From: a virus
Lineage: Duplodnaviria; Caudoviricetes
Virus record (IMG/VR): IMGVR_UViG_3300035501_000922
DNA: 64,000 nt
Reading direction: 5' to 3' (one strand)
Positions within the stretch are counted from its first letter, which is position 1. Every line of letters begins with the position of its first letter. The translations under genes and the position numbers were made by a program. The notes below the pieces were generated by a model. That model had not been told where the DNA came from and made no database searches. It saw nothing but the letters and a program-made list of their open reading frames with translations. Positions 27,124 through 63,406 of the stretch are shown here, in pieces.

Positions 27124-27402
27124 CTGTTTCTTACTATATCTCTATAGTACATAGACTATATCTTCAATATATATTCTGTTACCAAATATACAATGCCTCC
27201 CATTTCCACATTATCTGTGTACTCTACTCAGTTATTCATATAGATGTTTCTTCTATATTATCTTTTCGATAGTCGTTGAACGTTCTTCCATTAGGAAGCT
27301 TCGCTGCTGATTGTCTCTATTCATTAGATTGTTACACTTGGTACTAATGACTTGGCAAGAGTTTCCAGCAATTAAAGAGGTTTTAAATCACCTATTTTGT
27401 TA
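27124..27402 (-). ncRNA. Group I self-splicing intron (279 nt, no homing endonuclease) in RNAP beta
   Basis: 5' exon ends in U. P1 AAAUCGCU/GGUGAUUU has U.G at the splice site. Core motifs UUAAUUGCUGG, AAUCAGCAG, GUUCAACGACUA and AAGAUAUAGUCUA are present. Terminal G at 27124. Removal restores the frame. Confidence 0.92.
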
Positions 27403-28383
27403 AGCGATTTTTGAGCCTATTTCAAGAGGTTCGGAATGCTTGATATAAAATTCAATCATTACGCCACCTTCTTCAATTTTTTGTCCCTTAATGACACCAA
27501 ACTTATTGGGCTCAATTTTCTTGGTTGTTTCATTTAACATCAATCCACATTTTACAATACTATTTGTAGACTCAGGGTCATATTTTTCTAAGAATTTTTT
27601 CTTCTTATTTATTGTATTATAATAGTTAGTAACTATCTTTCTTAATGAAGGTGATAACTCATCTACTTCTACAGTAGAATATATTTTGATATCTTCAATT
27701 ATACCTGAGTACTTAGAATGAATATCATTTCTACTTCCTTCAAGGACATTAGACTGTTCATCGGCACTCAGATTAGCAAGTAATGCATTAAGAGAACTAT
27801 CTTCAAATGAAGTATCAAATTGAACTAAGCTATCTCCAACTTTGATTTCATCACCTTTTTTAACCATATATTCAACGTTAGCATTCTTACCAATAGTAAC
27901 TTGTCTTACAAAGCACATCTCTGTTGCTGCTTCATCAGATAACTTTTCTGTTATCATTGTAGCATCCTGATATGTATTATATGTAGACATAATTGCTACT
28001 TTGGTAAGTGTACCCATGTTCATACGGCAGTTATTAAACTTATCATTTGTAAAGAAATCTTTATGGTATGCAAGAACATCATCTTTCTTAAACTTATCAC
28101 CAACTTTAAGTGGTGTAATAAGTTTATTACTAAGGAAGAATCCACCACCACCATTTTTAACAATAGTATTTGATAAGTTAATAGCACGACATTTACCAGA
28201 GTTATATTTTACAATCATGATTTCTGATGATTCATCATAATCAATAACTGTTCCATTTTCATCAGCATTAACTACGAAGTCTGAAGAAAGTTCGAATCTA
28301 CAAACTTCTTCAAAACCATTTGACATTAATACTGGTGATGATTTTTTAACAGGAATAACGTGCTTACTTTGCTTGATTGCATG
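27403..28383 (-). CDS. RNA polymerase beta subunit, exon 2 (327 aa)
   Basis: HAIKQSKHVIP...YNTYQDA..ITEK (beta GYNFEDS motif)...EIGSKIA. Confidence 0.9.
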
Positions 28384-28691
28384 CATTTCCATGTTAAATA
28401 TTGAGTCGTTACTTCAATATCAATACATAATGTATTGTCACTATATCACTATAGTGGTCAGACTATATCTTCATTTTATACTCTATTACCGAATATAAAA
28501 TGCCACCTGTTTCCACTCCACTTAGAGTGTACTCTACTCACTTCTTCACTTAGATATTTCTTCTAAGCTATGTTTTCGATAGTCGTTGAACCTTACTCTT
28601 ATAAATAAGAGTCTTGGCTGCTGATTGTCTTCAGTGAAGATGTTCCAGCAATTAAAGCGGTTTTTTAACGTTTAAGCCATGTATCAAGTTA
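28384..28691 (-). ncRNA. Group I self-splicing intron (308 nt, no homing endonuclease) in RNAP beta
   Basis: P1 ACGUUUAGGU/GCUUAAACGU with U.G. Same P/Q/R/S core. Terminal G at 28384. Splicing gives DDPTRLG|HAIKQSKHVIP, in register with beta DDANRALMGANMQRQAVP. Confidence 0.92.
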
Positions 28692-31600
28692 ACCTAAACG
28701 TGTAGGGTCATCTTTTGTAGCAGCTAGAGGAATTGATAACTCACCCGGTGAGAATAGATTTGTATCATGTAATTCATTAAGCTTTTCATCTTTTAATTCA
28801 ACATATCCTCTTAACGAAACAACTGAAGGATTCATGGTAAGTGTTTTATTTACACCTACTGAACCATCAGGAGACGTTGACGGAGAGATAACACCTGTTG
28901 AGGTTTTATCAAATGTACGTTTTTCCATTGTATATGATTCGTCAAGGTTTGCACCTCTGAAACCTTTACTGGAAATACCATGTGACATTTCCATTTCTAG
29001 TACAGGATTAAGTGTAGAGTAATCCTCTACAGTTTTTAAAGCGAGTATTTCTTTGATTACACAATCCTGTGGTACTGAGAATGTTTTCTTACCATTAGAA
29101 TTACGATACAGAATATATTTTTTAGCTAATCTTTCATAAAGAATAGCAGGAATAATTTCATTACTTCTTATTCTAGATAAACCCTGATTTATCTCAGGTG
29201 TAAACTGTGAATCAGATAATAACGATACTGCATATATGATGATTTCTACTAAGTCTGTTGGAAGATTGAGGTCTTCACATACTTCAATTGTAATAGGGTC
29301 CATCATAAATTCGTATACGTTTAAAAGAGCATTTGCAATTGTTGCTTTACCATATACTTTAATTAAGTAAGGCATATAGGGTTCTTTAGTATCCATTTCA
29401 GCTATTCTATACTCTGATGTATCAAGCATTCTATAACCATTGAGGAGTAAATCAATACCAACATCAGCTTGGTATACCAAAAAGCAATCTGCAAATTTTA
29501 AGAAGTTTTCATTTGGTTTTAACTGAGGGAGTTTATCCTCAAGTCTATATTTAACTTTTCCTTTTGTTAATAGTGATGATAAACCTTCCCAGAAACCAAG
29601 TAATAAACCTACTGCAACGAACTGACTCATTACTTTTGCTCTAGTATACATAAGTTTTTTAGGTGCTTTAGTTGAATTATATAACTCAAGTATATCATTA
29701 TTAAGAGTCTTAAGAATAATATCTACAATAGTCAAATCATCATCCGTTTTCTGTGTATTAGTATCAATAAATATTGGTGAACCGGACTTGTCTACACCTA
29801 TAAACATATGACCTTTTGGAATGGATATATTCTTCGAAGAAGCATAATCAGTAGCTTCTTGCTGGTCAAAAAATAGAGTAGTTCTTCCATTTTTATATCT
29901 GGTAGCAATCTTAGAGATTTCATCATATTCGATAGTGGTCACATACTTGTTGTTAACCGATAAGCTGTTACCGAATGTGAAGTAAGATTCAAACTCACTA
30001 GATTTTTTAAGCACATTCTTTAATCTTTCAATTGAAGAAATGGACTTTGTACCTACTCTTTGAATAAACATCTTGTTGTAGTTTGTTGTGAGCTGAACTA
30101 TGTCTGCACTTGTCTTTACAACAGGATATAAAAGATTTTGTTTCTTAATGAGTTTTCTGTTACCACCGATATATAAGAATTTATCTTCAATAAACTTAGG
30201 CATATCAACTTTAATGGTATGACGTTTTCTGTTTGCATCTTCAAGATAAATAGTATATGTATCTTTGTAGTTCAACTCATCTGAAGTATCCTTAATCTGT
30301 ATATCTCTAACATACATAGGAATTGACTTATTATTTAATGCTAAAATAGCATTAGTAATATCTTTAGGCATTAGCTTTTCATTATATGTCTTTTCAAAGT
30401 TATCGAACTTAATCTTGGTCATATTTTTATTTGATGTTCTAACACTGTTTGAAACATCTTTTACAGGAATATTTATATGACTAGACTGAATCTTATTGAT
30501 CTCTTTTATTGACATATTACCAACTTTAATATTCTCTTGTGCTTTCTTTAATTCCTTATCTCTTGCTGTTGAAGCCGACGACTGAGGAATAATTGGAGCA
30601 ATAGTCTTATCATATATTTCACTAAGGAGTTCCTTGTCTGAATCTATATCATTTTCAACTTTCGTTAAAATTACATTTGATATCGTCTCATCAGGGATTT
30701 CTGATGTATTGGGAATATTAGCCTCAACCTCTCGACGAACTATCTCAGCTTTGTTTTTGATTTTATTATAAATCTCAGGATTAGAAAATGCTGAGGATAT
30801 TGCTGTAGGTTTTTCAATTGTATCATTTGTAACAATTTCTGTAGCAGTTGATTTATTTATTGATTCATTAATCTTGCCGATAGAATCTTCTACAGCCTCA
30901 TCTTTTTTTATGTTATCTTCGTCAATAACTGTATCAACGTTGGGTACATAAGAATACAGCTTTTTCATTTCAATTTTAAACTTTAAATAAGTTTTCTTTT
31001 CAGCTTGTGATGGATTGACTTTCAGGCATTTCTTATCTGTATAAAGATAAAAATCAATATTAACGTCTTTTAACAATGGAAGAAAACGATACATTGAATA
31101 GTATATCATAAATACAGGATTATTCAGATTATCCGAAAGATTCTTTTCAAGTTTAAACTTTTCAATGTTTATTAAAATAAACTTATTCTTGTAAACTGAA
31201 AGATTACTTGAGTTAATAATTGCTTTAATATAATCCCAATAGATTTTAACTCTCTTTACAGGAGGAATTTTACTACAAAGAGAATTAAAAATTTGAATAT
31301 ACCTTGATAAATCATAGTACATGTTACGTGTGTCTTTTCCATCTATAGTCATCTTTAGATAAGGATGAACTTTAGTTTGAGTTTTAATTTTCTTATAAAG
31401 TTCTTTTCTTTCAGTTAATTCACGTATCCTATAATTCTTATTATATAATCTTCCTCTATAAATAGGATTATAATAATAGTAATAATACCTATTTCCACTC
31501 ATAAAATTAATCTTATTATTAATTATTTCTATGGATTCATTTGTATTATTAGTGTATAAAAAACATAGATTTCCTTTACCAATTTTATCTCCTCTTGGTA

Positions 31601-31748
31601 AAGTAATACGACGTGTCATAGTTTTTAAATATGGAAGAGACTCAGGATATACTGCTTCAGTAACTACCGTGGTTTCTTCCTGTTCAGGTTCATCTGTTGC
31701 TTCTAATGATATAGGATTATCATTTATAACATCATCAAATAAACTCAT
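28692..31748 (-). CDS. Multisubunit RNA polymerase beta subunit, exon 1 (probably virion RNAP; spliced product 1417 aa)
   Basis: 'KVDMPKF....F.YIGGN', 'R.FD....G.ISP.TSPDGSVGV' and 'DDPTR' beta motifs. Acidic N-terminal leader with LEA/TEA putative prohead-protease sites. Late-type promoter. Confidence 0.88.
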
Positions 31749-31776
31749 TTACATAACACTTCCTTTCTATAACCAT

Positions 31777-31788
31777 TATTCTTATGTT
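31777..31788 (-). promoter_or_regulatory. Late-type promoter of RNAP beta
   Basis: Minus strand AACA TAAGAA TA upstream of RBS GAAAGGAAG. Confidence 0.65.
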
Positions 31789-31826
31789 TTTTGAGCTTCT
31801 TTCTATTACCATTCATCAGTTACAGA

Positions 31827-31868
31827 ATAAAAAAGAGTATGGATTACAATATCCATACTCTTTTTATT
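31827..31868 (-). terminator. Intrinsic terminator
   Basis: aaaaagagtatggat/atccatactcttttt. Confidence 0.75.
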
Positions 31869-31874
31869 ATTAAG

Positions 31875-34800
31875 TTAAAAATCGTCATCTTCTAAATTAT
31901 CAAGTAATGCCTCAGTATAGTTAGAATAGAATTCATCAATTGATTCAGTATCAATATTTTCATAGTTTTCGATATATGTTTCAACCTCTTGATACGACTC
32001 ATGTATGCTAACAATATTCTCTGGGAATAACTTAGCAATATAATCAGTATGACCACCAAATATATCATAGATAGCCTGACGACAGAATAATGTAAACGTT
32101 AATTTAGCATTCTTATCATTATCAGCTACGTATAAGTAATTGCTAAGTGTATTTTCAAGCTTATCAATTTCTTTTTGAAGTTCCTTCTTAACTTCAGGTG
32201 TATAGTCGCCTGTTGCTAAATCTTTCTTAAGCATATCAATATTTACTTGAATTCTATTTTGTATTGTTCCATGACCGCCATCATTGAATAGCATTAACAG
32301 TGTTCGATTTGCCATTGCAAGGTCTGTAAGGAACTTACGAGTTGAGTTTTCCTTTAAAGAAGCATTAGCTTCTGAAACAGTTAATCCAATAGGTTTAATT
32401 AAATTGAGAGCCTCAAGTTTTGCTAATGATGAACCTATTTCACTACCATAACCATATGCACCAGCAAATGAATCAGCAAATGTTTCTCCCTTTTTCTCAG
32501 GAACTGCAATAAGATGAGAAACGGGACTCATAAGCATATAAAGAGGCATAGCCAAGAAATTTAACGGTGCAGTTATTTTTTCAAGCCCTCTTGTCAACCA
32601 TGCACCAAAATTTTTCAATGCCATACCAATCTTTTTAAATATAGGAACTGCATTAAGAATAGCTTCGATAATCTTGGTATATGCACTATATATTTTTTTT
32701 CCCGGATCAGTTGCCAAAATTACAGGCCAAGGATTAATTGACGTTCTAGTGCCATTTTGGTATACTGTACCACTTTCGGGGTCAAATACTATATTTGGTT
32801 TTATCTGTATAACAGATCGTAATGTTTTTACACAAACATTAATCGCATAATAGAAAGAGGCGTCAAAATTATGACCAATTTCATGTAATAAGATTGCCAT
32901 ATATTCTCCTGCTGTCAAATCTGCTTGACTAGCAATAGTTGAACTAGCTTGGATAAAGCAAACATGACGATGCGACTTATCATAGTAGCCCTTTTTCTTA
33001 TCTACTGCAACTATTTCTTCACCATTAAACACTAAATCAGCGCAGAATAGTGTGCCAATTGCAGGTGCTACTTTAGAGGTTCTCTTCCATGTAATAAATA
33101 CCTTATTAAAACCAAACTGTTTTTGCAACAACTGTGTAAATTTTATATTTAATGGGTGATTTGTATAGTCGGCAAGTGGATTAGCTTTCATTAACGCTAT
33201 AAGCTCACCCAGTGTTTTTTCGGCTTCGATTAGTGTACCTGATTTTCCAAAGTAAGCTTCAGTATATACGTAATCATTATCAGACTCAGTAACAACTACA
33301 CGACCTTTCCTATCTTTAGTAATAACCTTATTCTCAGATTTATTCTGGTCAGGGAGATTATCAACCCATGTTCTCAATGTCTCCATGTAGTTTTTCTTCC
33401 ATTTAGCAAATGCTTCATCAGGACTTCCATTCTTCTTATCATAAGCAATAGGAATAATATCGAGATAGTCATTATTATCTACATTTTTCCAAACCCAATG
33501 TTTCGGAGGCTTTGGGAAATCATAGTCACCATCGAACATAATGCGAGCATCAGAATATAATTTACCATAGAAAACTCCATCTCTATAGTTGTCTTCTTTT
33601 TTTCTTAAATGAACATGACCTGCAGATGAATACTTAGTTTTATAACCTTTATTATTAAGAAGCTCAATAACAGGCTTAATTTCGCTATCAATATTAGCAG
33701 CTTCAAACATATTGTCAGGTTTGTGGAGTTCTAAATACTTTAACTTATTTTCATAGGTTTTAATAGCAGTAAGATTATTAGACTCCATAGCTGCTTCAAG
33801 TTTTTCTTCTAGTTCTTCTTTGGAACTTTTTTTATCAGAATAATAACCATCCACAGCTAATAATATACTTTTAACTTGTCCATTTGAGACACGTACGCCA
33901 ATAGATTTTTCAGTACTAATGTATCCTTCATCATCTTTTTTGAGGTCTTTTATAATTGACTTTATTTTTGTAAATGACGATGGCATAACAATTGAACCAT
34001 TAATTGAAACTTCAGCGTCATCAAAGATTTCTATTGCTTCGCATTCATCATTTGAATTATAAAATACGTGACAGAATCCAAAATCATCGGTAGTGTTTTT
34101 ACTGGATTCACTTTTACGGAATTTAGAAAAATCCGACTTAATTTTTTTTGATACTTCTGACTTTTTCATACCAAATTTAATTCCATTTATACCCTTTAAT
34201 GGGTGAGCATCAATTTTAATCAAATTACCTTGTTTGTTCTTTAATTCCTTCGCTGACTCATTAACATCAACACCGTCAGTATTAAACTTTTCATCAAGTT
34301 CATCAGCAAGATTATTGAGTGCTTCTATAGTTTCAGGATCTAATCCCTTCTTTAATACACGTAATTCTTTTTCTTTTTGAATTACATTTTGTTTTAACTC
34401 ATTCATTTTTGCAGGGTCAACATGTTTGATTTTTGCTACTCGAAGTTTAGCTTTAGCTGTTGATTTGGCCATAACTGCTCTTCTAAGTTCAGAAGAAATT
34501 GCAACCCTTGTTTTAACTTTATCAGTAAAATCTTTGATTGACTTCTCTACATAATATGTATATGCATAGTCAGGATTCTGAATATATTCATGAACAGCTT
34601 CAATCTCAATATTATCAGGTAATTCTATTCCATTCAACTTTCCGTCCTCCATTTCTTTATTAAGTGTTTTTATGTCACTTACAACAGAATTGGGGTCACC
34701 AACGCCCTTTGTAGAGCCACACTGAGGAAGCATTGCACCGATAGCGAATTCATCTTTGTTTTCATCTTGCTGATTATCAGTAACATTCTTTTCCTTGGCA

Positions 34801-35645
34801 TTGTCTAGGTCCTCAGTAGCATTTTCAACAACATGATCATACTCACCAGTTATAAGAGAATAAACAGATTCTTTTGCTTCTTTTAAATATAATTCACTAT
34901 TAGGACGTACATTGATAAATATCGTAAAATAGTTATCTTTGCTAACAGTAAAATCTTTAAATTCTTTTACCGTATTCTTAACAACATTAAATACATCATT
35001 ATATGTATCTTTGTTTTGACTTCCTAAGCATAATGAATTTGGTCCACTTACCATAGAGGAACCAGAACCTTTAATGAAAGCTGTACGGCTTTTTTTAGAA
35101 ATATGAAGCTTAAAGCCAGCTTCTTCAACTGCCTTTTCTACAGCATCAAGTACAGCCTTTTTCTTCTGCGATGCACCATCAGCACTCTCATTAAATGTAT
35201 CATCATCTATAATATCTTCCATTGCTTCTTTAACAGTCTTAGGAATTTTTATAGAAAAATAGAAAATAGATCTGGGACCAAAATCTAATTCGCACTTATT
35301 TTCATACTGTCTGATAACATCCTCGGCATCTTTATTTTTTAAAGAAGATATCTTCTTTTTTACTTCTTTTTCAATATCTTCATGTTCACTTTCAAGTTTT
35401 TCTATTATATCTTTACTTTCGGGGGATTTTTCTTTAATTTTTTTAATTTTCATTTCAAGTTTAATTTTCTTTTCAATAAGTTTTTTGGTATCTTTCTTGA
35501 TGGGAAATTTGATTTTATCTCCTATAGCAGTTGTAACTACTTTTGAACCCGCAGCTCCAATTGCTGAGCCTATTAACCCGGATTCAGAGATACTCTCATC
35601 CTCATCTTTTGGTATATCATTCATGATTAAATCAAAGTAATCCAT
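31875..35645 (-). CDS. Multi-domain (polyvalent) putative internal head protein with a zincin metallopeptidase
   Basis: HEIGH (32871-32885) plus downstream 'E.FADSFA..YGYG'. 'ID.EI..VIELLN.KGY.T.YSSAGH' domain. Many hydrophobic-x-E-(S/A) sites. Late-type promoter at 35679-35690. Confidence 0.7.
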   Translation of the reverse strand: MDYFDLIMNDIPKDEDESISESGLIGSAIGAAGSKVVTTAIGDKIKFPIKKDTKKLIEKKIKLEMKIKKIKEKSPESKDIIEKLESEHEDIEKEVKKKISSLKNKDAEDVIRQYENKCELDFGPRSIFYFSIKIPKTVKEAMEDIIDDDTFNESADGASQKKKAVLDAVEKAVEEAGFKLHISKKSRTAFIKGSGSSMVSGPNSLCLGSQNKDTYNDVFNVVKNTVKEFKDFTVSKDNYFTIFINVRPNSELYLKEAKESVYSLITGEYDHVVENATEDLDNAKEKNVTDNQQDENKDEFAIGAMLPQCGSTKGVGDPNSVVSDIKTLNKEMEDGKLNGIELPDNIEIEAVHEYIQNPDYAYTYYVEKSIKDFTDKVKTRVAISSELRRAVMAKSTAKAKLRVAKIKHVDPAKMNELKQNVIQKEKELRVLKKGLDPETIEALNNLADELDEKFNTDGVDVNESAKELKNKQGNLIKIDAHPLKGINGIKFGMKKSEVSKKIKSDFSKFRKSESSKNTTDDFGFCHVFYNSNDECEAIEIFDDAEVSINGSIVMPSSFTKIKSIIKDLKKDDEGYISTEKSIGVRVSNGQVKSILLAVDGYYSDKKSSKEELEEKLEAAMESNNLTAIKTYENKLKYLELHKPDNMFEAANIDSEIKPVIELLNNKGYKTKYSSAGHVHLRKKEDNYRDGVFYGKLYSDARIMFDGDYDFPKPPKHWVWKNVDNNDYLDIIPIAYDKKNGSPDEAFAKWKKNYMETLRTWVDNLPDQNKSENKVITKDRKGRVVVTESDNDYVYTEAYFGKSGTLIEAEKTLGELIALMKANPLADYTNHPLNIKFTQLLQKQFGFNKVFITWKRTSKVAPAIGTLFCADLVFNGEEIVAVDKKKGYYDKSHRHVCFIQASSTIASQADLTAGEYMAILLHEIGHNFDASFYYAINVCVKTLRSVIQIKPNIVFDPESGTVYQNGTRTSINPWPVILATDPGKKIYSAYTKIIEAILNAVPIFKKIGMALKNFGAWLTRGLEKITAPLNFLAMPLYMLMSPVSHLIAVPEKKGETFADSFAGAYGYGSEIGSSLAKLEALNLIKPIGLTVSEANASLKENSTRKFLTDLAMANRTLLMLFNDGGHGTIQNRIQVNIDMLKKDLATGDYTPEVKKELQKEIDKLENTLSNYLYVADNDKNAKLTFTLFCRQAIYDIFGGHTDYIAKLFPENIVSIHESYQEVETYIENYENIDTESIDEFYSNYTEALLDNLEDDDF

Positions 35646-35705
35646 TGATTAATCAGTCCTTTCTATATAAATTTATCTTAAATACTTGTTTTTTATACAG
35701 ACAAA

Positions 35706-38156: not shown

Positions 38157-38211
38157 TATCGTTTCACTCCTTTAATAAAAAAATATTTATATTATTGTGC
38201 TTTAATTAAAA

Positions 38212-38242
38212 AAAGTGATGTAGGACTACCTACATCACTTTA
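38212..38242 (-). terminator. Intrinsic terminator
   Basis: aaagtgatgtagg/cctacatcacttt. Confidence 0.75.
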
Positions 38243-52646: not shown

Positions 52647-52682
52647 AAGAGAGAGAGTGTGTAAAAGCACTCTCTCTTTTTT
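52645..52682. terminator. Bidirectional terminator
   Basis: aaaagagagagagtg/cactctctctttt between convergent genes. Confidence 0.75.
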
Positions 52683-53308
52683 TATATTAATTTCTTATTT
52701 AATTCGAGAACTCCAAAGTCATTTGAATCATACAGTAATGATCTATCTATATAACGATTTAACTGTTCTCTGTATTCATCAGAAATGGCATCAGCATATT
52801 TATCTATAAATTCTTTAAGATTACCATATGCTTGACGTTGATTTATAAAGATATTACCATTATGAATTTGCTCATGCACAGTCGTACTTACCATTACAAT
52901 CTGTATTCTATTTTTTTGGTGTTCGTCTAATACTGCATCAGCAATTCTTGCAGTACTTATTTTCCATTTTTTTAATATGAAGTATTCTAGTACTATTGCA
53001 CAATAATCGAATAATGTAAATATAGGACCATGATGCATTTCAATACTTGCATCTTCATCTGTTATATTTTTAAAGACCTGACATCTATCAAGCTTTACTT
53101 CTTTTTTTAGATATCTTATATACTTATTATATCTGTCATTGGTTCGCACTAATCTTTCACAACCCCTGATAAAATTTACATAACTCTCATAGTTACTAAA
53201 ATAATTAGTATCCTTATAGTATGGGATATTATAAAATGATGACTTTGCATCTATAATAGGGGTTATGTTAGATTTATCATATATTATATCTGGTAATGAT
53301 TTTGCCAT
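52682..53308 (-). CDS. HNH-like protein, paralog of 44536-45219
   Basis: 'IEMHHGPIFTLFDY...VMVSTTVHEQIH'. GACA-N6-TA promoter at 53340-53351. Confidence 0.55.
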   Translation of the reverse strand: MAKSLPDIIYDKSNITPIIDAKSSFYNIPYYKDTNYFSNYESYVNFIRGCERLVRTNDRYNKYIRYLKKEVKLDRCQVFKNITDEDASIEMHHGPIFTLFDYCAIVLEYFILKKWKISTARIADAVLDEHQKNRIQIVMVSTTVHEQIHNGNIFINQRQAYGNLKEFIDKYADAISDEYREQLNRYIDRSLLYDSNDFGVLELNKKLI

Positions 53309-53424
53309 TTTAATTCCTCCCGTAAATACATAAATAAATTATATCAATGTCGATTAAATAAAAAAATCGCTATTTTCTTGTAGACAATTCCTTAATAAAC
53401 TTCATTAAAGGAGCTGAATACGTA

Positions 53425-56400
53425 ATGAGTTTAGACTACATAAATCCAATGACAAATTTATATAAAGAATTTCTTGTTATATTACAAAAGATTGTCATTA
53501 AATATAATTATTTAGCCGATACATATGAAACTGTTGAAATGACTCGAAAAGCTAATGAGTATTTGGATGCAGTTGAGAAAAAGGATACCTTTTTCACGTA
53601 TCGTGATTATACTTATGAAGATTTTGATGCAGTTAAACTTTTTGATTATGATATAAGGAAAAAAGCTGTTACTGATATTCGTGCTATACCTGTAGATAAT
53701 TACAATGAAAAGACAGGCATAGGTACTCAGTATAGGCAGAAGCTTTTAGAATTACGTCGTAAAAAAGTCATAGAAGAATATGAAGAACAGAATAACTATT
53801 ATAGAATGTTAAATGGTCAGCCTGATACAGATGCTGACCCTCGCTATTTTTTCTATGTGACAGATGAAATAGCTGAAGAGTATGGAATTGACCCCACTAT
53901 TCCAATACATGAATTACAAGATTACTATAATAATCTTGACCCTGATTTTCCAGACCATGGTGACCAGATTATGGCTATTCTTGAAGGTATTGGTTATATT
54001 GATACTGTCAAGAATGCATCAAGAGAAAAGAGAAACCTGATATATGGTGGTTCCATCTGTGGTGGCTCTGGTGCTATGGTTACAGCTTCATTGACAACAG
54101 CTGCAAGAGCTGAACTAGGGATAACATCAATGAGAATTAATCTCACTAATGATGCGAGTCCTATTACCGGATATAAAGCTAATGAAAATCTTTATTATAA
54201 TGCTGCAACAATTAGTTCGTTTGCTGGTCTTGATATACAACCGGGTGACTGGGTTATGTCAACAGGTAGTAAATGGAAGAAAGTTGATAGCGACGTAGAT
54301 ATACAGGGTGAAAGCGATACCTGTGAGGGTTATTTGAATTATCTGGGTTCACAGAGAATTAGTATATTAACTGCTCGTAAAGCTAAAAACTTTGAGATAC
54401 TTCGTCTAGATAAAAATCTTATTCGTACGAATGTTTATGATACATTTGTAGATATATACAATCAGTGTCGTGACTATATGGTAACCGTAGTATATCAGTA
54501 TGACTTCAGGTCATTTATGAGTTATTATGATAACTTCATTGCTATGTGCATTATGCTTATGGCTGAACTTCATCTTATAACTAAACAAATACCATATGAA
54601 GTTAGAAGAAACTTTTTTGATGTATATGCATTACGTATGCTTTATGAAGCATATAATATGCCGTATGATATATATGTAGATATAGATACACAAAACCTGA
54701 TTGCTCAGAACCTGAATATGATTATTATTAATAAGGCTACTAATAAAGTTATTTATGACGTAGCTAATTTACTAGGATTCAGTAACTTAACAGCGTATAA
54801 ATATTATCTTGCTAAGCAACATAAACTTGACCCTTATGGTAATCCTATATTCAAGACTACTGAAAGATTTAATACTGATACGGGAGAGTTAGAAACGGTT
54901 CCTGATTATGATACAATGTATGATATCTATTTCCAAAAAGAAGAATTAATGGAAGATGATTTTATACAGTCATTCAATAGTAAGGTAAACCGTGTTGAGT
55001 ATAATGTCATAACTCCGAATGATGCATTCTGGTGGGAAGACCAAAACTTAATTGATAGAAAGAATGAAACCGACTATAACTTTGTGGAAAGCAAATATTT
55101 AAGTTTGGGTCTTTCATATAAAATGACTGATGTTTTATTTGAAAATGTCATTCTGTTAAAAACTGTAATGTATTATAAAAACGAACTTAGTGATATTAGC
55201 ATATCACTTCCTAAGATTATAACAGGTGCTCCTGTTCCTTTATTCGATGCTATAATTCTTTTAATTTGTCTTGTAAGTAAGAAGCATAACCTGACTGGTG
55301 AGATTATCTCTATACCAACTGATATTATATCAGTTTTGGATTATTTGAATAATATGGAAAGTAGTCGTGGTTTAGTTGATACATTTGCATTCGATTTTGA
55401 TTATTTCAAAACTGATGAAGGACAAGATGAAATTGAAAAAGTTAAAGAGTGTTTGGGTAAAATAGCAGTTGGTTTATTTGACAGCACGGGTGGATACTAT
55501 GTTTTTGATGACCCAACCTATAGCTATTATAATAGTTTTGATGAGAAAGTTGAAAGTGATATTAGCACTGATGTAGTGGCAGAACTCATGAAGATGGGTG
55601 AATTAACTACAGGTGAAGTTGATGTACATGGTGATGACGTTGATTTATTCGAAGAATACATCAGCGTACTATCATTAGATTCTGTTAGTGGACGTGCTGA
55701 AAAAATAGAGACTCTTAATAAAATCTATACGAATATTAAAGGTCTCTATAAGTTCTTAAATGAAAAGATGATTGATGCTTCTGATAAAGAAACATATGAC
55801 ACTTTGAGAACGTTCTATAATGCTGCATTTTATGCTAAAGAAGTAAAAGATATATTTACAATTCAGTGGAGAGACAGTACGGGAGAAACTCACCAGAGAA
55901 CTGCAAAGAACTTTTTTGAATATTTATATTACAAAAACCGTAGTTTATATCTATCTATTTTCTATATGGATTTTGAAAATGAGTATGATAAGTTCCTTAA
56001 CAATAATACATTCCCCACACTTATTCATAGTACATCCGATAATCCTGATTCTCTTTTAGTAATAGATGACGATGATAATATGACTGGACCTTCAATTAAA
56101 TTATCTGAGGTACAGAAGTATGTACCAAATGCAAGGGTTGGCGATAGAGTTGAAATATGTCCTGAACCAACTTATGCTGAATTTACTGATAAACTTAATG
56201 CAGGTTTAATTGATGTATCATTTGATGTGATGAAAGAGATTACAGAAGGAGAGAGTAACAATGAAAGTGCAATGAGTGCTACTATCTATTATTACGTAAA
56301 TCATATTATCTCGAAATTTAAAAATATAGTAGATAATATTGACTATTCATATATGCTTAATGATGTATCAACTTTATTACAGGACTTATTGATTAAACTG

Positions 56401-57468
56401 ATCAAATTTGTCAAATCGTTTACTGTAGATTTTATTGGTCTTGATATCATATTTGTATGTGATTTTAAGCCTGAGAATCTTCTCAGATTAATTGATAAAG
56501 TTCATTATATTGAAAAAACCATAGAACCAAAAGAAACTATGAACTTTAGTTTCTGGGATACTATATCAGTTACTGCTAATAAAACGATATATGACAGAAA
56601 TAAACTAAGAGACAATATTGCTAAACCATGGTTTACAGACCCCGATAATTCAACAGATATTCCGTCTAGACGAGGAATGATTGCTTTATTTGATTCAACA
56701 TCAACTAAAACTGATTTGAGTATTGGCTACTCATTATCGAATGTTGATGAATCAAACGGCAATATGTTGCTAAATTTGTATGTTCCGAGAGCGGAATTAG
56801 TTGATGATTCATATAATATTAATTATGATGACTATACAAATAATCCAAGCTCATACAAGGGAATTATTCCTACTATTACATCAAATGATGCACATAGTGT
56901 GATTCCTGATAGTTATGCATACACAGTATATCTTATATGCAAAACAGATGATATTGATGATGTAACAGGATTTCCTGATGCTGGTCAAGGACCTAGTGTA
57001 AGATTCCTGAGTACACCATTGGTGGATATATATAGTGGACTTGGGACTACTACATTAAACATTCGTGAGTTTGTACCATCTGATAGTAATGATACATTAA
57101 GTAATGACCACGTAGAAATACTTACAAATAAAGATGCTAGAGAGTGGCATATAATTGCATTATCTCAAACATCCAATACAGTTCGTGTATTTATTGATGG
57201 AGAACGTTGCTTAGATCATACCTTTAATCAAAGGTCAATTGGAGATGGCACTACGAATGATTTCCAATGTTATACTATGCCTAATAACTTTACTGGTAAA
57301 GGGTTTAAAGATGTTTTAAATGGATATTCATATTATTCGTGTGGTATTCAATTTAAAATGATGTGTATAGCAAATGTTAATCATAATGGTGCTGAATTAC
57401 AAGAAAATTCAAAATGGTTTGCACATAAATATGGGATTCAAATAAATAATAAGATTCCTATACTCTAA
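53425..57468 (+). CDS. Large baseplate/virion structural protein with modules B and A and a C-terminal LamG/ConA-like domain
   Basis: 1347 aa. 'E.NNYYRMLNG.P' and 'I.NKAT.KV...V..LLG' baseplate-like segments. C-terminal 'WHIIAL....VRVFIDG' LamG motif. Promoter GACA-N6-TA at 53383-53394. Confidence 0.6.
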   Translation: MSLDYINPMTNLYKEFLVILQKIVIKYNYLADTYETVEMTRKANEYLDAVEKKDTFFTYRDYTYEDFDAVKLFDYDIRKKAVTDIRAIPVDNYNEKTGIGTQYRQKLLELRRKKVIEEYEEQNNYYRMLNGQPDTDADPRYFFYVTDEIAEEYGIDPTIPIHELQDYYNNLDPDFPDHGDQIMAILEGIGYIDTVKNASREKRNLIYGGSICGGSGAMVTASLTTAARAELGITSMRINLTNDASPITGYKANENLYYNAATISSFAGLDIQPGDWVMSTGSKWKKVDSDVDIQGESDTCEGYLNYLGSQRISILTARKAKNFEILRLDKNLIRTNVYDTFVDIYNQCRDYMVTVVYQYDFRSFMSYYDNFIAMCIMLMAELHLITKQIPYEVRRNFFDVYALRMLYEAYNMPYDIYVDIDTQNLIAQNLNMIIINKATNKVIYDVANLLGFSNLTAYKYYLAKQHKLDPYGNPIFKTTERFNTDTGELETVPDYDTMYDIYFQKEELMEDDFIQSFNSKVNRVEYNVITPNDAFWWEDQNLIDRKNETDYNFVESKYLSLGLSYKMTDVLFENVILLKTVMYYKNELSDISISLPKIITGAPVPLFDAIILLICLVSKKHNLTGEIISIPTDIISVLDYLNNMESSRGLVDTFAFDFDYFKTDEGQDEIEKVKECLGKIAVGLFDSTGGYYVFDDPTYSYYNSFDEKVESDISTDVVAELMKMGELTTGEVDVHGDDVDLFEEYISVLSLDSVSGRAEKIETLNKIYTNIKGLYKFLNEKMIDASDKETYDTLRTFYNAAFYAKEVKDIFTIQWRDSTGETHQRTAKNFFEYLYYKNRSLYLSIFYMDFENEYDKFLNNNTFPTLIHSTSDNPDSLLVIDDDDNMTGPSIKLSEVQKYVPNARVGDRVEICPEPTYAEFTDKLNAGLIDVSFDVMKEITEGESNNESAMSATIYYYVNHIISKFKNIVDNIDYSYMLNDVSTLLQDLLIKLIKFVKSFTVDFIGLDIIFVCDFKPENLLRLIDKVHYIEKTIEPKETMNFSFWDTISVTANKTIYDRNKLRDNIAKPWFTDPDNSTDIPSRRGMIALFDSTSTKTDLSIGYSLSNVDESNGNMLLNLYVPRAELVDDSYNINYDDYTNNPSSYKGIIPTITSNDAHSVIPDSYAYTVYLICKTDDIDDVTGFPDAGQGPSVRFLSTPLVDIYSGLGTTTLNIREFVPSDSNDTLSNDHVEILTNKDAREWHIIALSQTSNTVRVFIDGERCLDHTFNQRSIGDGTTNDFQCYTMPNNFTGKGFKDVLNGYSYYSCGIQFKMMCIANVNHNGAELQENSKWFAHKYGIQINNKIPIL

Positions 57469-57513
57469 AAAACAATATATTTAAATACTATATATGAGAA
57501 AGGAATGATATGA

Positions 57514-58563
57514 ATGTCAAAAATCTTATCTGACAGACTTAATTTAACTGATAAGAAAGAGAAGCAAGCATCTATTCCGATGCCTGATTTTCCTGATATA
57601 TTAAAACATTCACCTACCTTATGGAAAAAAACCGAGGTTCTCTGTAGTAATGGACCTATTATATCAAACCCGAATGGTAAATCGTCATTTGCTCCGGGTT
57701 GTCCTTTTACGCAGTCATCTAACATGGTTCCCATAGGTGGTGTTCAATATGTTATGGAGCAATTATTTGGCGTACAAGGTGAAATAGATATTCCTACATT
57801 ATATGATTTAACAGATAGCAGTAATACAACCATCTCTCATCCTACTAAGTATGAAAAACCTGTAGGACCAGTTAATTCAGTTCCTGCAACTGATACTTAT
57901 CAAACTCCTGATGGTACAAAGACTGTTATTTATAGACCGGGGCATTTAGTACAGCTTTTCGGTATTGGTATCACAGGTACCGCTGAAAATGATATTACTG
58001 TATTCCCTGTTAACTATAGAGAAAATTCTATTGACAGTACAATCGCCAGTGAAGATGGACAAACGATAAAAGGAACAATGGTTCCTTTCAGATATACATC
58101 TACACAGCTTAAGCAGACTGATGAAAGAAAACAATACTTTGGTAAGGTAAAGAATGATGATGGTATTATTTCGTATTATCTTAAGAAGTTTGAATCAGAC
58201 CCTGTAATTAAGCATGTATGGAAGATTGGCGAAGATACCGAAATTGAAGATGAAGAGAATATCGTATCTTCCGAAGATATATGGCAAAATACTTCTAGTT
58301 TAAATGCTGTAGAATCATTTACTGAGATTTTCCTTAAGATTAGTAAGAAAGATACTAAAGAATGGTTTGGTGCTTTAAACCAAGAAGATAGAGCTCGTGT
58401 TAATACGATTGCTTTATTTAGTGGAAGATATATAACTACTGGTACTCTTGATACAGATGGAGATTACCAAGATGTAAGATTATTCTCTAAGTTGAACATT
58501 CCTGTTGAGTATCTCACATTATCAAAAGATTTGAACATTATTTACCGTGTATACGGTGCATAA
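57514..58563 (+). CDS. Putative virion structural (baseplate/tail-fibre attachment) protein
   Basis: 349 aa, follows the baseplate-like gene. C-terminal 'VNTIALFSG...LFSKLN......KDL.IIYR'. Confidence 0.5.
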   Translation: MSKILSDRLNLTDKKEKQASIPMPDFPDILKHSPTLWKKTEVLCSNGPIISNPNGKSSFAPGCPFTQSSNMVPIGGVQYVMEQLFGVQGEIDIPTLYDLTDSSNTTISHPTKYEKPVGPVNSVPATDTYQTPDGTKTVIYRPGHLVQLFGIGITGTAENDITVFPVNYRENSIDSTIASEDGQTIKGTMVPFRYTSTQLKQTDERKQYFGKVKNDDGIISYYLKKFESDPVIKHVWKIGEDTEIEDEENIVSSEDIWQNTSSLNAVESFTEIFLKISKKDTKEWFGALNQEDRARVNTIALFSGRYITTGTLDTDGDYQDVRLFSKLNIPVEYLTLSKDLNIIYRVYGA

Positions 58564-58587
58564 CACAATTTGAAATTTATACTTGGG

Positions 58588-58599
58588 TTATATATTATT
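58588..58599 (+). promoter_or_regulatory. Early-type promoter TTATATATTATT
   Basis: Upstream of the tubulin gene and followed by a 5' hairpin. Confidence 0.65.
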
Positions 58600-58661
58600 C
58601 TATGGTATAATCGTTTTATTATACCATAAAAAATATTTTAATGAAAGGAGGACTCGTTCCT

Positions 58662-59807
58662 ATGTTAAAAGTAGGTATTGTCGGTATCGGTAACACAGGT
58701 AATCAGGTTGCCGCTTTAGCTCAGAATGAATTAAAGATTCCTGTTCTGGCTATTAATAGTAGTGAGAAAGACCTTGAAACCGTACCAGATGGAGTTCCAA
58801 AAAAGTTGATTTCTAGTGCTGATGGTTTATCACAGGGTGCTGGAAAAAACAGATCACTCGCAAAGAGTTATTTGAAAGATTCTATTATGCAGTTTCTTTC
58901 GTCTGAAGAAATTCAGTCATTCATTAACAGTTTAGATGTGTTTTTTATAGTTAGTTCTACAGGTGGTGGTACTGGTTCAGGTACTGCACCTCTTATGGCT
59001 AATATTATTCAAGCTACATTTACTGATGTTAAGGTAATTTTGGTTGGTGTGCTTCCTGTAAATAATGAGGCACTGAGTGCACATGTAAATACCCTTGAGT
59101 ATTTGAATGAGTTGTACACAGCACTGAGCAACCAAACATATATGTTGTATGATAACGATAAACTCTCGAATATGCCATCTTATCAAATGATGGAACAGGT
59201 AAACAAAGAAATCGTTGAGGATATCAATGTTATCAGATGTACATATAATCTGACTACAAGATTCGATTCAATTGATGAGCAGGACATGATGCGTCTTATT
59301 TCATTCCCCGGTCGTATTGTCATTTCTAGACTTCAAAATATTGCCGAGAAGGATTGTGATTCTAAGAGTCTTGAAGATATGCTCATCGATAATATCAAGA
59401 AGAACTGTCATGTTGAAGCTCAGCGTGATAAGAAGATTACAGCTTCTGGCATTATTACAAATCTTTCGAAGACATTATCGGAGAATTTCGATAACCATAT
59501 TCCAAAGGTTCGTGAATTCATAGGTGACCCTATCCATGATTTTAATCATATTTATATTAATGAGGATAGGAAACTTCCTAACAATGTTTTCCTGATTTTA
59601 TCAGGTTTAACTCCTGTTAACGACAAGATACACAGAATTAGTGACCGTGTCGAGGAGATTGAGGAAAAGCAGAAAGCTTTGGAAGAAGAGAATGCCTTGA
59701 ATGAAATTGATATGGGTAAACTTAGTGGTAAGGTAGCTTCTAAGGATAACAAAGCAAGTGATGCTACTACGGTTGACCTTCAGGGTATTTTTAACAAGTT
59801 TATGTAA
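58662..59807 (+). CDS. Tubulin/FtsZ-family GTPase (PhuZ/TubZ-like)
   Basis: 'VGIGNTGNQVA', 'GAGKN' and the tubulin signature 'GGGTGSG', plus 'YDND'. Start ATG 58662 behind AAGGAGG. Confidence 0.9.
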   Translation: MLKVGIVGIGNTGNQVAALAQNELKIPVLAINSSEKDLETVPDGVPKKLISSADGLSQGAGKNRSLAKSYLKDSIMQFLSSEEIQSFINSLDVFFIVSSTGGGTGSGTAPLMANIIQATFTDVKVILVGVLPVNNEALSAHVNTLEYLNELYTALSNQTYMLYDNDKLSNMPSYQMMEQVNKEIVEDINVIRCTYNLTTRFDSIDEQDMMRLISFPGRIVISRLQNIAEKDCDSKSLEDMLIDNIKKNCHVEAQRDKKITASGIITNLSKTLSENFDNHIPKVREFIGDPIHDFNHIYINEDRKLPNNVFLILSGLTPVNDKIHRISDRVEEIEEKQKALEEENALNEIDMGKLSGKVASKDNKASDATTVDLQGIFNKFM

Positions 59808-59943
59808 GAATTGTATTGAAATAATACATTATCTATTCGGTATGTGGATGGTATGATAATAATATTTTATCATACCATCCACATATATCTAACCTTAAAA
59901 ATGGTTTTAAGAAAAATCTAATTGTTGAAAGGAGTTTTAAACC

Positions 59944-60906
59944 ATGGCTAAAAATGGCGGCGATAATAATCGCAAGGTGAAAATCAGTGAAGACGCAAAG
60001 GAGTTTGCAAAATTAACACTGAAAAAGTTTAAGAAGGAAAGCGACGGTTACTACGATTCAAAGAAGGAGCTGAAGCAGAGTTATCAGCTGTATCTTATTG
60101 ACCTTCTTCCGAAGACAATCGAGTTCGTTGTTAAGTTCGGTTATATCAAAGATGATACCGTGCAAGAAACCAAGGAAGCAATTTATGCTAAGCTTGTTGA
60201 TGAGGATTTCGTAAAAGTTCTTAAGAAAGAAATTAAGAACGGCAACAAGATTGAGAATATCAAGCTGCTTCCTATTATTATTAAAGACATACTTCTGCAG
60301 GCGGAAAAATCAAATGCTGAGCTGTTAGCAAATGACCCGAATGCAAAAATCTATGATATGTCGGATCTTGTAGAGCTTACTCAGTTGATTCTTAAGAAGA
60401 GACTGAAGAAGATGGCAAAGGCAGGTATTGATGAGAACATTGCATTTGATACCCTGTCTATTATTCCGACTGATATTGCTCTTAAGAGCAGTCAGAATTA
60501 TCGTATTCATATGTTCTATGAGTGCCTGTATGAGCATTCTAAGAGCAAGGTTATTCCCTTCAATGATATTATGAAAGTTATTGTTGATGAGGAATATTAT
60601 CCGATGTTTATCGCATTCGCTTTACTTGAGCGTAAAGAAAAGTTTGGTAAGCTTACGGATAACCAGAAAACATTCTACCTTGCAGTATCTTCATGGTGTT
60701 TCGATACAATGGAGAAACTGAATAAAGATGTAATCAGAGCTATTATCACGTCCTTTATTCGTGGTCGTCAGAGAGACGAATCTAAGAATAATGATTCTAA
60801 TAGACGTTACGCTCTTGGTTCACTGTCAGAAACAGATTATCCGAGAATCGCTAAGACGATTAAAGCAATGATTGCCGAGAACGATTCAATCAAGAAGTAT
60901 TTCTGA
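59944..60906 (+). CDS. Hypothetical protein
   Basis: 320-aa helical ORF, RBS GAAAGGAG. Early-like promoter at 59822-59833. Confidence 0.75.
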   Translation: MAKNGGDNNRKVKISEDAKEFAKLTLKKFKKESDGYYDSKKELKQSYQLYLIDLLPKTIEFVVKFGYIKDDTVQETKEAIYAKLVDEDFVKVLKKEIKNGNKIENIKLLPIIIKDILLQAEKSNAELLANDPNAKIYDMSDLVELTQLILKKRLKKMAKAGIDENIAFDTLSIIPTDIALKSSQNYRIHMFYECLYEHSKSKVIPFNDIMKVIVDEEYYPMFIAFALLERKEKFGKLTDNQKTFYLAVSSWCFDTMEKLNKDVIRAIITSFIRGRQRDESKNNDSNRRYALGSLSETDYPRIAKTIKAMIAENDSIKKYF

Positions 60907-61010
60907 TAAAACAGAATAATTAAATGCTGAAGCTACATCGACTATTAAGTATGGTCGATGTATGCGTAAGCATATTTTTTTATATTTTATAAATAGAAAG
61001 GATTTTTGAA

Positions 61011-61985
61011 ATGATTTATCACTTTAGTATTGGTGCTTATAAGCACTACAATGATGCGGAGAATAATGCGACTATAATGAAAGACGAGCATGACAACTCT
61101 TTCATTTCTCTCAATGCAATTAATCAGAGAATTAGAATTACATCTGGATGTCATTCTCTTCAGTCTGTTACCAGTGACGATTTTTTAATTAGCAGTAACA
61201 GTTTTGCAACAGTGAATGACGCCGATATTCTTCCTTATATGGTGACAAAATTCTCCTTAGGTGATGCATTAGATAGTGAATATCGATGGGTAAATAATAG
61301 CAAGAATATGAACCCGATGTTTATTTCTAATCGTAAGCCAAAGGATGCAGATACAAAGAACGAGCAGATTATTGCTTATATTACACTTGACCCGAGAGTT
61401 AAGGTTCTGAGTTATTCTACTAAGTACAGTATTCTTCAGACATATGGAAAGAAGGATTACTACACCGGTTGTACAATCGTATTAAATCGTGATGATATTA
61501 CTGTCGGTGAAGAAAATGTACTTATGACAATTAAGTTTGTTGACACTACTACACACAGATATAAGGTTGCTAACATCAGTATTGATGAAGCAGGAAAGCC
61601 TACAATGAATATTGAAGATGTAGTTGGCGATGAAGTTAGCAAGATGAGATTTAATGACAGAAAGTATAAGTCGAGTCTGAGATTCAGATATAAGACTAAG
61701 AAGAAGCAGCTTCTTACCTCGTACTATATCTGCGAAAAGTATCAGGAGCAGTTTGTTAGAGACCTCGTTAAGGATTTACATAATCCGACAGTTATGACTG
61801 TAGATACTCCCTTTGATGAATCAAATAGTAATGTAGTTGATTTGCTGAATACACTTTCGGAAAATCATGTAAAGGCTATTACAACCATCGGAGTAGATAT
61901 TCCTCTTGATGTTCTTAAGAAGCATAAGATTTTCAATGTATTTGAATATGATATTGAAAAGGAAATTCTTAAGTGTAAAAGATAA
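61011..61985 (+). CDS. Hypothetical protein
   Basis: 324-aa ORF, RBS GAAAGGA. Confidence 0.75.
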   Translation: MIYHFSIGAYKHYNDAENNATIMKDEHDNSFISLNAINQRIRITSGCHSLQSVTSDDFLISSNSFATVNDADILPYMVTKFSLGDALDSEYRWVNNSKNMNPMFISNRKPKDADTKNEQIIAYITLDPRVKVLSYSTKYSILQTYGKKDYYTGCTIVLNRDDITVGEENVLMTIKFVDTTTHRYKVANISIDEAGKPTMNIEDVVGDEVSKMRFNDRKYKSSLRFRYKTKKKQLLTSYYICEKYQEQFVRDLVKDLHNPTVMTVDTPFDESNSNVVDLLNTLSENHVKAITTIGVDIPLDVLKKHKIFNVFEYDIEKEILKCKR

Positions 61986-62087
61986 AATTATTATAAACTA
62001 GATTTATAAGATAATTATATATTATTTTATGGTAAGTTTATACTTATTCAAAAAATTTTAATCCAATTGCCGAAAGGAGTTTTAAAA

Positions 62088-62567
62088 ATGGCAGAAAGAA
62101 AAAGTAATGGTCCCGTTCAGACAGTCACCAGATCTATTAATAAGAGAGGTGAACTTAAGGGAAAGGACAAGAAGGAAACGAAGTATCTGAAAGCTATTTG
62201 CCCTCATCACAAGTATAATAAGAAGGGCAAGCTTAAGCCTACGATCTTCAATAACAATGATGGAACATGCATCTGCACTATGTGCGGTCAGAAGTTCCCA
62301 ACTAAGCTTTATGATAATGACCAGCTTGGTCAGATTGTTGGAGACATGAAGACACTTAATGAGCAGGCTAAGTATATGGCTGTTGCAACTGGCTCGGGTG
62401 GAAACGGAGTAGATTTCTTTGCTCAGGTTGGTGCAGTTCTTGCAAAGTACAAGAAGTCATATAAGAAGCTCAGAACCATTGCTTCAAAGCAGTCTCATGT
62501 AAAAGAAAAGAAGCGTAAGAAGAATTCCATGGGTTCCAATCAGTATGGTACTTGGGGAAGTCGTTAA
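62088..62567 (+). CDS. Basic zinc-ribbon protein
   Basis: CPHH...CTMCG. Start ATG 62088 behind GAAAGGAG. Early-type promoter at 62015-62026. Confidence 0.7.
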   Translation: MAERKSNGPVQTVTRSINKRGELKGKDKKETKYLKAICPHHKYNKKGKLKPTIFNNNDGTCICTMCGQKFPTKLYDNDQLGQIVGDMKTLNEQAKYMAVATGSGGNGVDFFAQVGAVLAKYKKSYKKLRTIASKQSHVKEKKRKKNSMGSNQYGTWGSR

Positions 62568-62605
62568 TTAAGCTAGTAACCTACTTCTAATATACTCCAT
62601 TTTTC

Positions 62606-62645
62606 AATAAAGGGAATATGAGATTTTTCTCATATTCCCTTTATT
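62606..62645 (+). terminator. Intrinsic terminator
   Basis: ataaagggaatatgaga/tctcatattccctttat followed by a T tract. Confidence 0.8.
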
Positions 62646-62771
62646 TTTTATTATCGACTTATAATATTATCCGTAGGGATATAGGGATAAAATAAAATAC
62701 TGAAAGAAACATAATTTTAAGGTTTTAAAAGCCTAGAATTTATAAATATTTTGAAAGGATGTGAATGAGAA

Positions 62772-63099
62772 ATGGCAAAAGATGTACAAATGTTCTACAT
62801 CGAATCAGACATTAAGAAGATTCAAACTAAGACGAATCTATACATTCAAAAGTATGGTCCTGCAGGTGCTTTTCATTTAGCACGAGAAATCATACAGAAT
62901 AATATAGATGAATGTATTGACCCTGAGAGTAACGGAAGTAATATCTACATTTCTTATGACAAAGAAAGTGACATGTTAACATGTGAAGATGATGGAAGAG
63001 GATTTCCTGAAAAGGATTATCCTCTTGATATTTTCTGCACCAAAAACCAATCAGGTTCTAAATTCTTTAGAGACCAGGGCGGTGATTCCGCTGGAGAGT
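62772..63099 (+). CDS. gyrB: DNA gyrase B / type II topoisomerase ATPase subunit, exon 1
   Basis: GHKL motifs 'EIIQNNIDE', 'EDDGRGFP' and 'SGSKF'. Confidence 0.88.
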
Positions 63100-63406
63100 T
63101 AACACTTAGCTCTTGTACTATAGCGATATAGTACTAGCACTCTTTTAATTGCTGGGAAGTCTCATGTAGACAATCAGCAGCGAAGCTTCCTAATGGAAGA
63201 ACGTTCAACGACTATCGAAAACACGGTTATTCGAGAAATACGGTAACTGGAAGTGAGTAGAGTAGGGTTTAAGCAAACCCGAAATGGAGAGCCTACTGTA
63301 ATTGGTAATAGATTACAGAGTGAAGATATAGTCTAAACTTCTATGGTGACATAGAGCTGTCTTAATTGACAGATATAAGTATAGCGAACTTATATGAATA
63401 TAATTG
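63100..63406 (+). ncRNA. Group I self-splicing intron (307 nt, no homing endonuclease) in gyrB
   Basis: P1 GAGAGU/GCUCUU with U.G. Core UUAAUUGCUGG, AAUCAGCAG, GUUCAACGACUA and AAGAUAUAGUCUA. Terminal G at 63406. Splicing T|TC gives SAGEFGVGLTVVNALS. Confidence 0.92.

Follow-up and report, generated by a model that had tools for sequence, protein, structure and literature searches.

Three short group I introns (I1, I2, and I3), none of which contains an open reading frame (ORF) of endonuclease size, interrupted two genes in a 64,000-nt stretch of the IMG/VR virus record IMGVR_UViG_3300035501_000922, which was analyzed at its full length (referred to as the window). I1 and I2 were located in the gene for the β-subunit of a multisubunit RNA polymerase (RNAP), and I3 in the gene for the GyrB-like large subunit of a type II topoisomerase (topo II); I2 and I3 shared an identical sequence of 54 nt (54-mer). 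The source was an uncultured AR9-like jumbo phage of ~252 kb, and the introns occupied the most conserved catalytic motifs of these two essential genes. The best explanation overall, which we consider probable, is that I1, I2, and I3 are self-splicing introns from an AR9-like pool that arrived by homing, and that the P6 hairpin within the 54-mer was exchanged between intron copies by recombination.

The three elements were confirmed as genuine, related group I introns with site-specific guides. Against Rfam RF00028 (gathering score of 50 bits), I1, I2, and I3 scored 88, 70.9, and 80.4 bits, respectively, with E-values of 1e-16 to 1e-21, and were placed at 28439-28747 (-), 27132-27436 (-), and 63090-63356 (+). 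The placement of I1 was displaced by ~55 nt upstream, into exon 1, and the real I1 has a longer 3' tail. When this search was rerun at E<=1, no fourth group I intron was detected within the 64-kb window. Since intron-less alleles exist in close relatives (locus L002 for the RNAP β-subunit and loci L020-L022 for topo II), the exact junctions of I1, I2, and I3 were known (Table 1), and these boundaries agreed with the lengths (308, 279, and 307 nt) and TAAC starts previously proposed in a sequence-only reading of this DNA. All three introns ended in G, and their removal gave reading frames equal, residue for residue, to L002 and L020-L022 at all three junctions. The insertion site of I2 (site B) was the motif equivalent to GDK...RHGNKG of the RNAP β-subunit, while I3 interrupted a Phe codon (T/TC; the slash marks the junction) in GGDSAGE-F-GVGLTVVNALS; the first codon of both I1 and I2 was an in-frame TAA. 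No ORF longer than ~45 amino acid residues was found inside I1, I2, or I3, and none of endonuclease size would fit, also as claimed in that reading.

The P1 pairings (exon/guide), read by hand from the sequence, were ACGUUUAGGU/GCUUAAACGU in I1, AAAUCGCU/GGUGAUUU in I2, and GAGAGU/GCUCUU in I3. Every P1 closed with a U·G wobble pair at the 5' splice site, and the guides differed between the introns, which bears out the earlier proposal that each guide is tailored to its own exon. Covariation was analyzed by RNAalifold in 14 aligned cores of the family: those of I1, I2, I3, and a fourth intron (I4; see below), and ten from relatives. P3, P4, P5, P6, P7.1, P7.2, P8, and P9 were recovered, with compensatory double changes in 33 of the 62 predicted pairs; P7 was invariant across the 14 cores, and hence uninformative. 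The base of P6 was C-G in I2, I3, and I4, and C-C/G-G in the other aligned cores. I1 and I2 possessed no P2, and I2 had an extended P5, while a P2 hairpin and a P9.1/P9.2 tail were present in I3. The P7.1/P7.2 helices (alignment columns 179-200 and 219-277), which separate P7 from the 3' strand of P3, covaried, and because of these helices a phage-type IA architecture was assigned; together with a resemblance to Staphylococcus, Escherichia, Bacillus, and Pseudomonas phage introns, they suggest that this architecture is IA2-like.

On the basis of the Rfam alignment and covariation, the 54-mer covered the 3' strands of P5 and P4 (the latter being Q), the P6 hairpin in full, J6/7, and R, which is the 5' strand of P7. 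It was the longest stretch common to I2 and I3 and to any intron pair in the window, and each copy was single within the window; the exact identity of the two copies, pointed out in the sequence-only reading, was confirmed by sequence comparison. An assembly artefact was excluded as the cause of this identity, because independent assemblies reproduced the copies: I1 and I2, including the 54-mer, were identical in L059 (from another JGI sample), and the I3 copy was found in L053 and L054. The 54-mer matched 638 records of cultured phages, 493 of them over at least 80% of its length, typically with 85-88% identity; matches at this level included Pseudomonas phiKZ-like, E. coli rV5-like, Campylobacter, and Vibrio phages. 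In phiKZ-like phages, the end blocks (query positions 2-53; 85-87% of the 54-mer) showed 100% identity, and a P4' block (14 nt) and a J6/7-P7 block (19 nt) were identical in I1, I2, I3, and the introns of several relatives. The P6 stem (CGAAGCUUC...GAAGAACG) was present in 24 IMG/VR loci with at least 20 different apices; the 7-nt apex of I2 and I3 (CUAAUGG) was absent from these 24 loci, and was limited to I2 and I3 among the P6 variants seen. Neither the exact 54-mer nor a 31-mer spanning P6 was found in IMG/VR or the JGI metagenome collection, which evidently did not contain the window's own contig. Therefore, the suspicion raised with the original observation, that the 54-mer might be equally conserved in unrelated phages, was largely borne out at 85-88% identity, but not at the apex: roughly 47 of the 54 positions represent ordinary core conservation, and the excess identity is confined to the P6 hairpin.

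The relationships among the complete cores differed from those suggested by the 54-mer. Aligned-core identities were 84% between I1 and the intron G4rpoBa, 81% between I2 and G4rpoBa, 80% between I2 and the intron of L005, and 78% between I1 and I2; introns in other phages (79-84%) were about as near to I1 and I2 as these two were to one another. I3 was 66-70% identical to every intron compared, and I2 was its nearest neighbor (~70%) only through the 54-mer. In a three-sequence test, I2 followed G4rpoBa at 48 of the 65 sites separating I3 from G4rpoBa, and 11 consecutive I3-like sites occurred in I2 only at alignment columns 130-174 (P6 and the start of J7/7.1). A run of this length was reached in none of 5000 permutations (run-length permutation test), and the outcome was unchanged when L005 or I1 was used as the alternative parent. 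These results show a mosaic pattern in I2, which is thus a chimera: its backbone is similar to the RNAP-gene introns of other phages, and its P6 module is the one also present in I3. Nearest neighbors sought by short segments gave too much noise at the A/T-rich ends of the introns. Similarity at the 5' end between I2 and the site-B intron of L004 was also considered as homology, and was rejected since it is explained by a common P1/P10 requirement.

Long identical tracts were not limited to I2 and I3. Among 21 introns, the mean longest exact stretch was 28.6 nt in within-genome pairs versus 17.6 nt in between-genome pairs, and no label permutation (0 of 5000) gave a difference as extreme. Within-genome pairs in the related genome G004 shared identical stretches of 53-65 nt, and introns 3 and 4 of g189 from AR9 (locus L058; KU878088, 149469-159129), a published genome, shared 58 nt, in the P7.1/P7.2 region. 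Because within-genome pairs in G004 and AR9 share tracts of similar length, the 54-mer is typical of such genomes. Among the mechanisms previously proposed for the shared sequence, recombination or gene conversion between intron copies fits best, in line with the mosaic structure of I2 and the longer tracts within genomes, while reverse splicing gained no support from the exon targets, which are unrelated. A more far-reaching interpretation, which we put forward only tentatively, is the concerted evolution of dispersed ribozyme cores in intron-rich jumbo phages through frequent ectopic gene conversion anchored on the invariant P4 and P7 blocks, by which internal modules would be swapped while the site-specific ends (the P1/P10 guide and P9 tail) stay in place. 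If this is true, modules such as the 54-mer would be homogenized across several genes of one genome, and introns could be renewed or re-targeted at the DNA level with neither an endonuclease nor reverse splicing.

The description of these introns as a family of three was an artefact of the window. A fourth ORF-less intron, I4 (366 nt), was located in the same topo II gene 1.3 kb past the end of the window (window-equivalent positions 65357-65722; L049:14347-14712); it was read from L049 (JGI metagenome contig Ga0376456_0000002; 251,915 bp), which agreed with the window at 100% identity for 12,990 nt. I4 interrupted RYKG/LGE, started with TAAT and ended with ...ATTG, and L020-L022 were intron-less at this position. 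The P6 hairpin of I4 differed only slightly from that of I2 and I3, and the 3' tail was similar to that of I3. In relatives, the insertion site of I1 (site A) was occupied in L005/L006, L007, L009, and L014, and L019 was interrupted at or near this site; a further site 8 nt downstream (A') contained an intron in L008 and the second intron of L007, and site B was occupied in L004 and L015. The cores of the introns in these site-A and site-B relatives were 75-84% identical to I1 and I2. On the other hand, the introns at a given site differed between phages, and none of those in L004, L005, L007, L008, L009, L014, and L015 had the P6 of I2 and I3. ORFs for NUMOD4/HNH_3 endonucleases were present inside the introns at site A in L007 and L009 and at site B in L015. 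The closest relatives (G001, L001/L021, and L003/L022) possessed none of the four introns. Overall, I1, I2, and I3 appear from these comparisons to be part of an intron pool circulating in the AR9-like jumbo-phage clade, not a private family.

Scans of whole records with Rfam gave eight matches in G004 (seven above the threshold) and 14 in G005 (five above the threshold), and the terminase gene of G004 contained four group I introns. Introns in L004, L005, L008, L009, and L015, although clearly homologous, escaped Rfam at the gathering threshold, and hence Rfam intron counts in relatives are minima. Two further arrangements were observed in this pool. In L007 (4407-5999), back-to-back introns at A and A' were separated by a micro-exon of 8 nt (CATGCGAT; 5716-5723), and the first of them carried a NUMOD4/HNH/HTH ORF (4738-5694) in its 3' tail. 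In G004, an HNH endonuclease ORF (phrog_59; L039:729-1550) was located between the third and fourth introns of the terminase large-subunit gene.

We propose the following pathway. After transcription, the intron would fold and use its own guide to base-pair to the upstream exon at its end (P1, closed by U·G at the splice site); two standard transesterifications, started by free guanosine and finished by the terminal G, would then excise the intron and restore the reading frames of the RNAP β-subunit and topo II. Ribosomes would stop at the intron border of I1 and I2, because both start with an in-frame TAA. The introns most likely arrived by homing at the DNA level through HNH endonucleases, still encoded in relatives by introns that occupy the I1 and I2 sites, and either the endonuclease gene was later lost or the introns may have been mobilized by an endonuclease encoded elsewhere. 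P6 would have been exchanged by homologous recombination or gene conversion, anchored on the invariant blocks at either side. The classical homing cycle of invasion followed by the loss of the endonuclease (reviewed in PMC3984707) fits, because occupancy is sporadic, the closest relatives are intron-less, and introns at the same sites bear HNH endonucleases; these same-site introns make DNA-level homing plus endonuclease loss sufficient, and, thus, reverse splicing need not be invoked. The 5' exon targets of I1, I2, I3, and I4 were unrelated in sequence, and for this reason reverse splicing by the present copies is not favored. I1, I2, and I3 encode no endonuclease and are presumably not autonomously mobile at present. 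A tblastn search of the window with the HNH proteins of relatives gave nothing (E>1), and the neighboring ORFs and 29 further ORFs of the window showed no match to HNH, GIY-YIG, or LAGLIDADG; the only nuclease family was RusA, represented by a Holliday-junction resolvase gene at 10423-11025 (-).

Several points weigh against this reading. No gene for a trans-acting endonuclease was found in the 64-kb window (ORFs of at least 100 amino acid residues were scanned), and introns bearing an endonuclease are not known from the topo II sites, for which three relatives were compared, all intron-less. In the run test, the sites depend on one another, as the P6 strands covary, and the run may represent one event, a hairpin swap. 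Furthermore, I2 and I3 might both have kept an ancestral P6.

The identity of the 54-mer might instead be a matter of pure structural constraint, if the conserved core and a common P6 variant simply coincided in two introns acquired independently. This would account for the P4' and J6/7-P7 blocks shared by I1, I2, I3, and several relatives, for the end blocks fully identical in phiKZ-like phages and the full-length matches in E. coli, Campylobacter, Vibrio, and Pseudomonas phages, and for the occurrence of the P6 stem in 24 IMG/VR loci. However, at least 20 apices were found among those loci and none was CUAAUGG, the P6 31-mer was absent from IMG/VR and the JGI metagenome scan, I2 and I3 were only ~70% identical over aligned columns outside the 54-mer, and the closest backbones to I2 had another P6 type; we therefore regard constraint without exchange as unlikely. 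Even less credit is given to the recent copying of I2 or I3 as a whole intron from the other, moved by reverse splicing or ectopic homing and followed by re-tuning of the guide. The observed patchwork contradicts such copying. While no other intron pair in the window shared so long an identical stretch as I2 and I3, and I2 was the nearest neighbor of I3 overall (70%), identity collapsed on both flanks of the 54-mer, P2 and the P9.1/P9.2 tail were present only in I3 and the P5 extension only in I2, and the backbone of I2 was closer to G4rpoBa (81%) and L005 (80%) than to I3. In addition, the exon targets AAAUCGCU and GAGAGU are unrelated, such that the present guide of each intron would be unable to select the other site.

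The sequence-only reading had also considered that the introns could be kept as a shared regulatory splicing checkpoint on the expression of RNAP and topoisomerase. The only features in its favor are that the introns lie in essential genes and that I1 and I2 have in-frame stops at their borders, whereas the nearest relatives are uninterrupted at all four sites, and sporadic occupancy by introns that differ between phages at a given site is as expected of selfish elements; this claim was not upheld, and we consider such a role very improbable. Homing from the AR9-like pool combined with recombination in P6 accounts for the observations better than these alternatives.

The features described above are listed in Table 1. 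The RNAP β-subunit was encoded by three exons (phrog_3148 and phrog_14872) and was nearest to the proteins of the AR9, PBS1, and Staphylococcus S6 jumbo phages (27-29% identity), while the topo II subunit was assigned to phrog_543, HATPase_c, and DNA_gyraseB. Nineteen related loci were found in IMG/VR, and megablast of both intron regions against cultured phages gave no match. L001 and L002 carried an uninterrupted RNAP β-subunit of 1422 amino acid residues, and L020-L022 an uninterrupted topo II subunit.

Table 1. Positions of introns, the two copies of the 54-mer, and exons of the interrupted genes in the window
Feature	Positions	Strand	Description
I1	28384-28691	(-)	308 nt; ORF-less group I intron; site A of RNAP β-subunit (DDPTRLG/HAIKQ); Rfam, 88 bits; intron-less allele, L002
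I2	27124-27402	(-)	279 nt; ORF-less group I intron; site B of RNAP β-subunit (EIGSKIA/NFTALKNT); Rfam, 70.9 bits
I3	63100-63406	(+)	307 nt; ORF-less group I intron; GyrB-like topo II large-subunit gene; Rfam, 80.4 bits; intron-less alleles, L020-L022
54-mer copy in I2	27263-27316	(-)	Exact match to the I3 copy; also in L059
54-mer copy in I3	63168-63221	(+)	Exact match to the I2 copy
RNAP β-subunit exon 1	28692-31748	(-)	Virion-type multisubunit RNAP β-subunit, AR9 g189 orthologue; phrog_3148 (E=1e-87); tblastn to AR9, PBS1, and S6
RNAP β-subunit exon 2	27403-28383	(-)	phrog_14872 (E=4e-70); 89% identity to L002 residues 1023-1349
RNAP β-subunit exon 3	26908-27123	(-)	Stop codon included; phrog_14872 (E=3e-10); 92% identity to L002 residues 1346-1417
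Topo II exon 1	62772-63099	(+)	GHKL ATPase part; phrog_543, HATPase_c
Topo II exon 2	63407-64000	(+)	Extends beyond the window to the fourth intron; phrog_543, DNA_gyraseB

The identity with L002 increased from 71% in exon 1 to 89% in exon 2 of the RNAP β-subunit gene; a homing scar was considered as the cause of this increase and was rejected, since the N-terminal part was less conserved in every comparison. In L059 (JGI 3300043080), which is from the same phage, RNAP β-subunit exon 3 had a deletion of 61 nt (L059:4035-4060; ~27048-27108 of the window) that adjoined a short AAGAA repeat and would frameshift the C-terminus; this may represent a defective variant or an assembly error. The window had a G+C content of ~32%, encoded virion proteins, and contained no tRNA. 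A PhuZ-like tubulin gene was located at 58641-59807 (+) (phrog_4733; Pfam Tubulin). A single ORF of 4358 amino acid residues at 12625-25701 (-) had no match to any PHROG family, and the local G+C content (35-40%) was higher than that of its surroundings.

With regard to annotation, the RNAP β-subunit and topo II genes are intact and not pseudogenes, and must be joined across exactly defined introns. This locus adds a clear case of a natural group I intron chimera, and the difference in tract length within and between genomes bears on the ways in which introns without ORFs are maintained and become diverse in giant phages. No new mechanism is involved: RNAP genes with several introns, ORF-less introns beside HNH-bearing ones, and recombination at core blocks have already been described. 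For the T4 td and nrdB introns, domain shuffling by recombination at shared core elements was reportedly observed by Bryk and Belfort in 1990. In that system, too, paralogous introns of a single phage genome reportedly gave rise to chimeras through homologous recombination at their conserved core blocks; the process was seen experimentally there, whereas it is deduced here from a natural mosaic.

AR9 and PBS1 are the closest systems for comparison. The orthologous g189 of AR9 is annotated (KU878088) as a join of six exons together with the HNH gene g190, and the AR9 introns were described by Lavysh et al. 2016 (cited in PMC12350094). The host gene of the RNAP β-subunit is orthologous, ORF-less and HNH-bearing introns are mixed in both sets, several introns are located in one conserved gene segment, and long identical tracts (58 nt in AR9) occur between paralogous introns. 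All five introns of AR9 g189 have the R block GTTCAACGACTATC, and most have the Q block and the P9.1/P9.2 tail motif GTAGCGAA. On the other hand, the host proteins are only ~28% identical; AR9 intron 4 is located ~7 codons downstream of site A, and intron 5 at L002-equivalent residues 1104/1105. Site B showed no intron in the aligned AR9 stretch, which ends at L002 residue 1283, before site B (1349). Among other intron-rich jumbo phages, Jug phages carry, per genome, ~18.5 group I introns, most of them short (PMC12880540), and an HNH-bearing intron of PhiPA3 was studied in co-infection with a related phage (PMC11620839). These phages (PMC12880540, PMC11620839) are similar in having many short ORF-less introns in essential genes and mostly stand-alone homing endonuclease genes, and differ in clade and host. 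The observation is real, yet it is an instance of a described phenomenon, that of the AR9/PBS1 introns and the intron-rich jumbo phages (PMC12880540).

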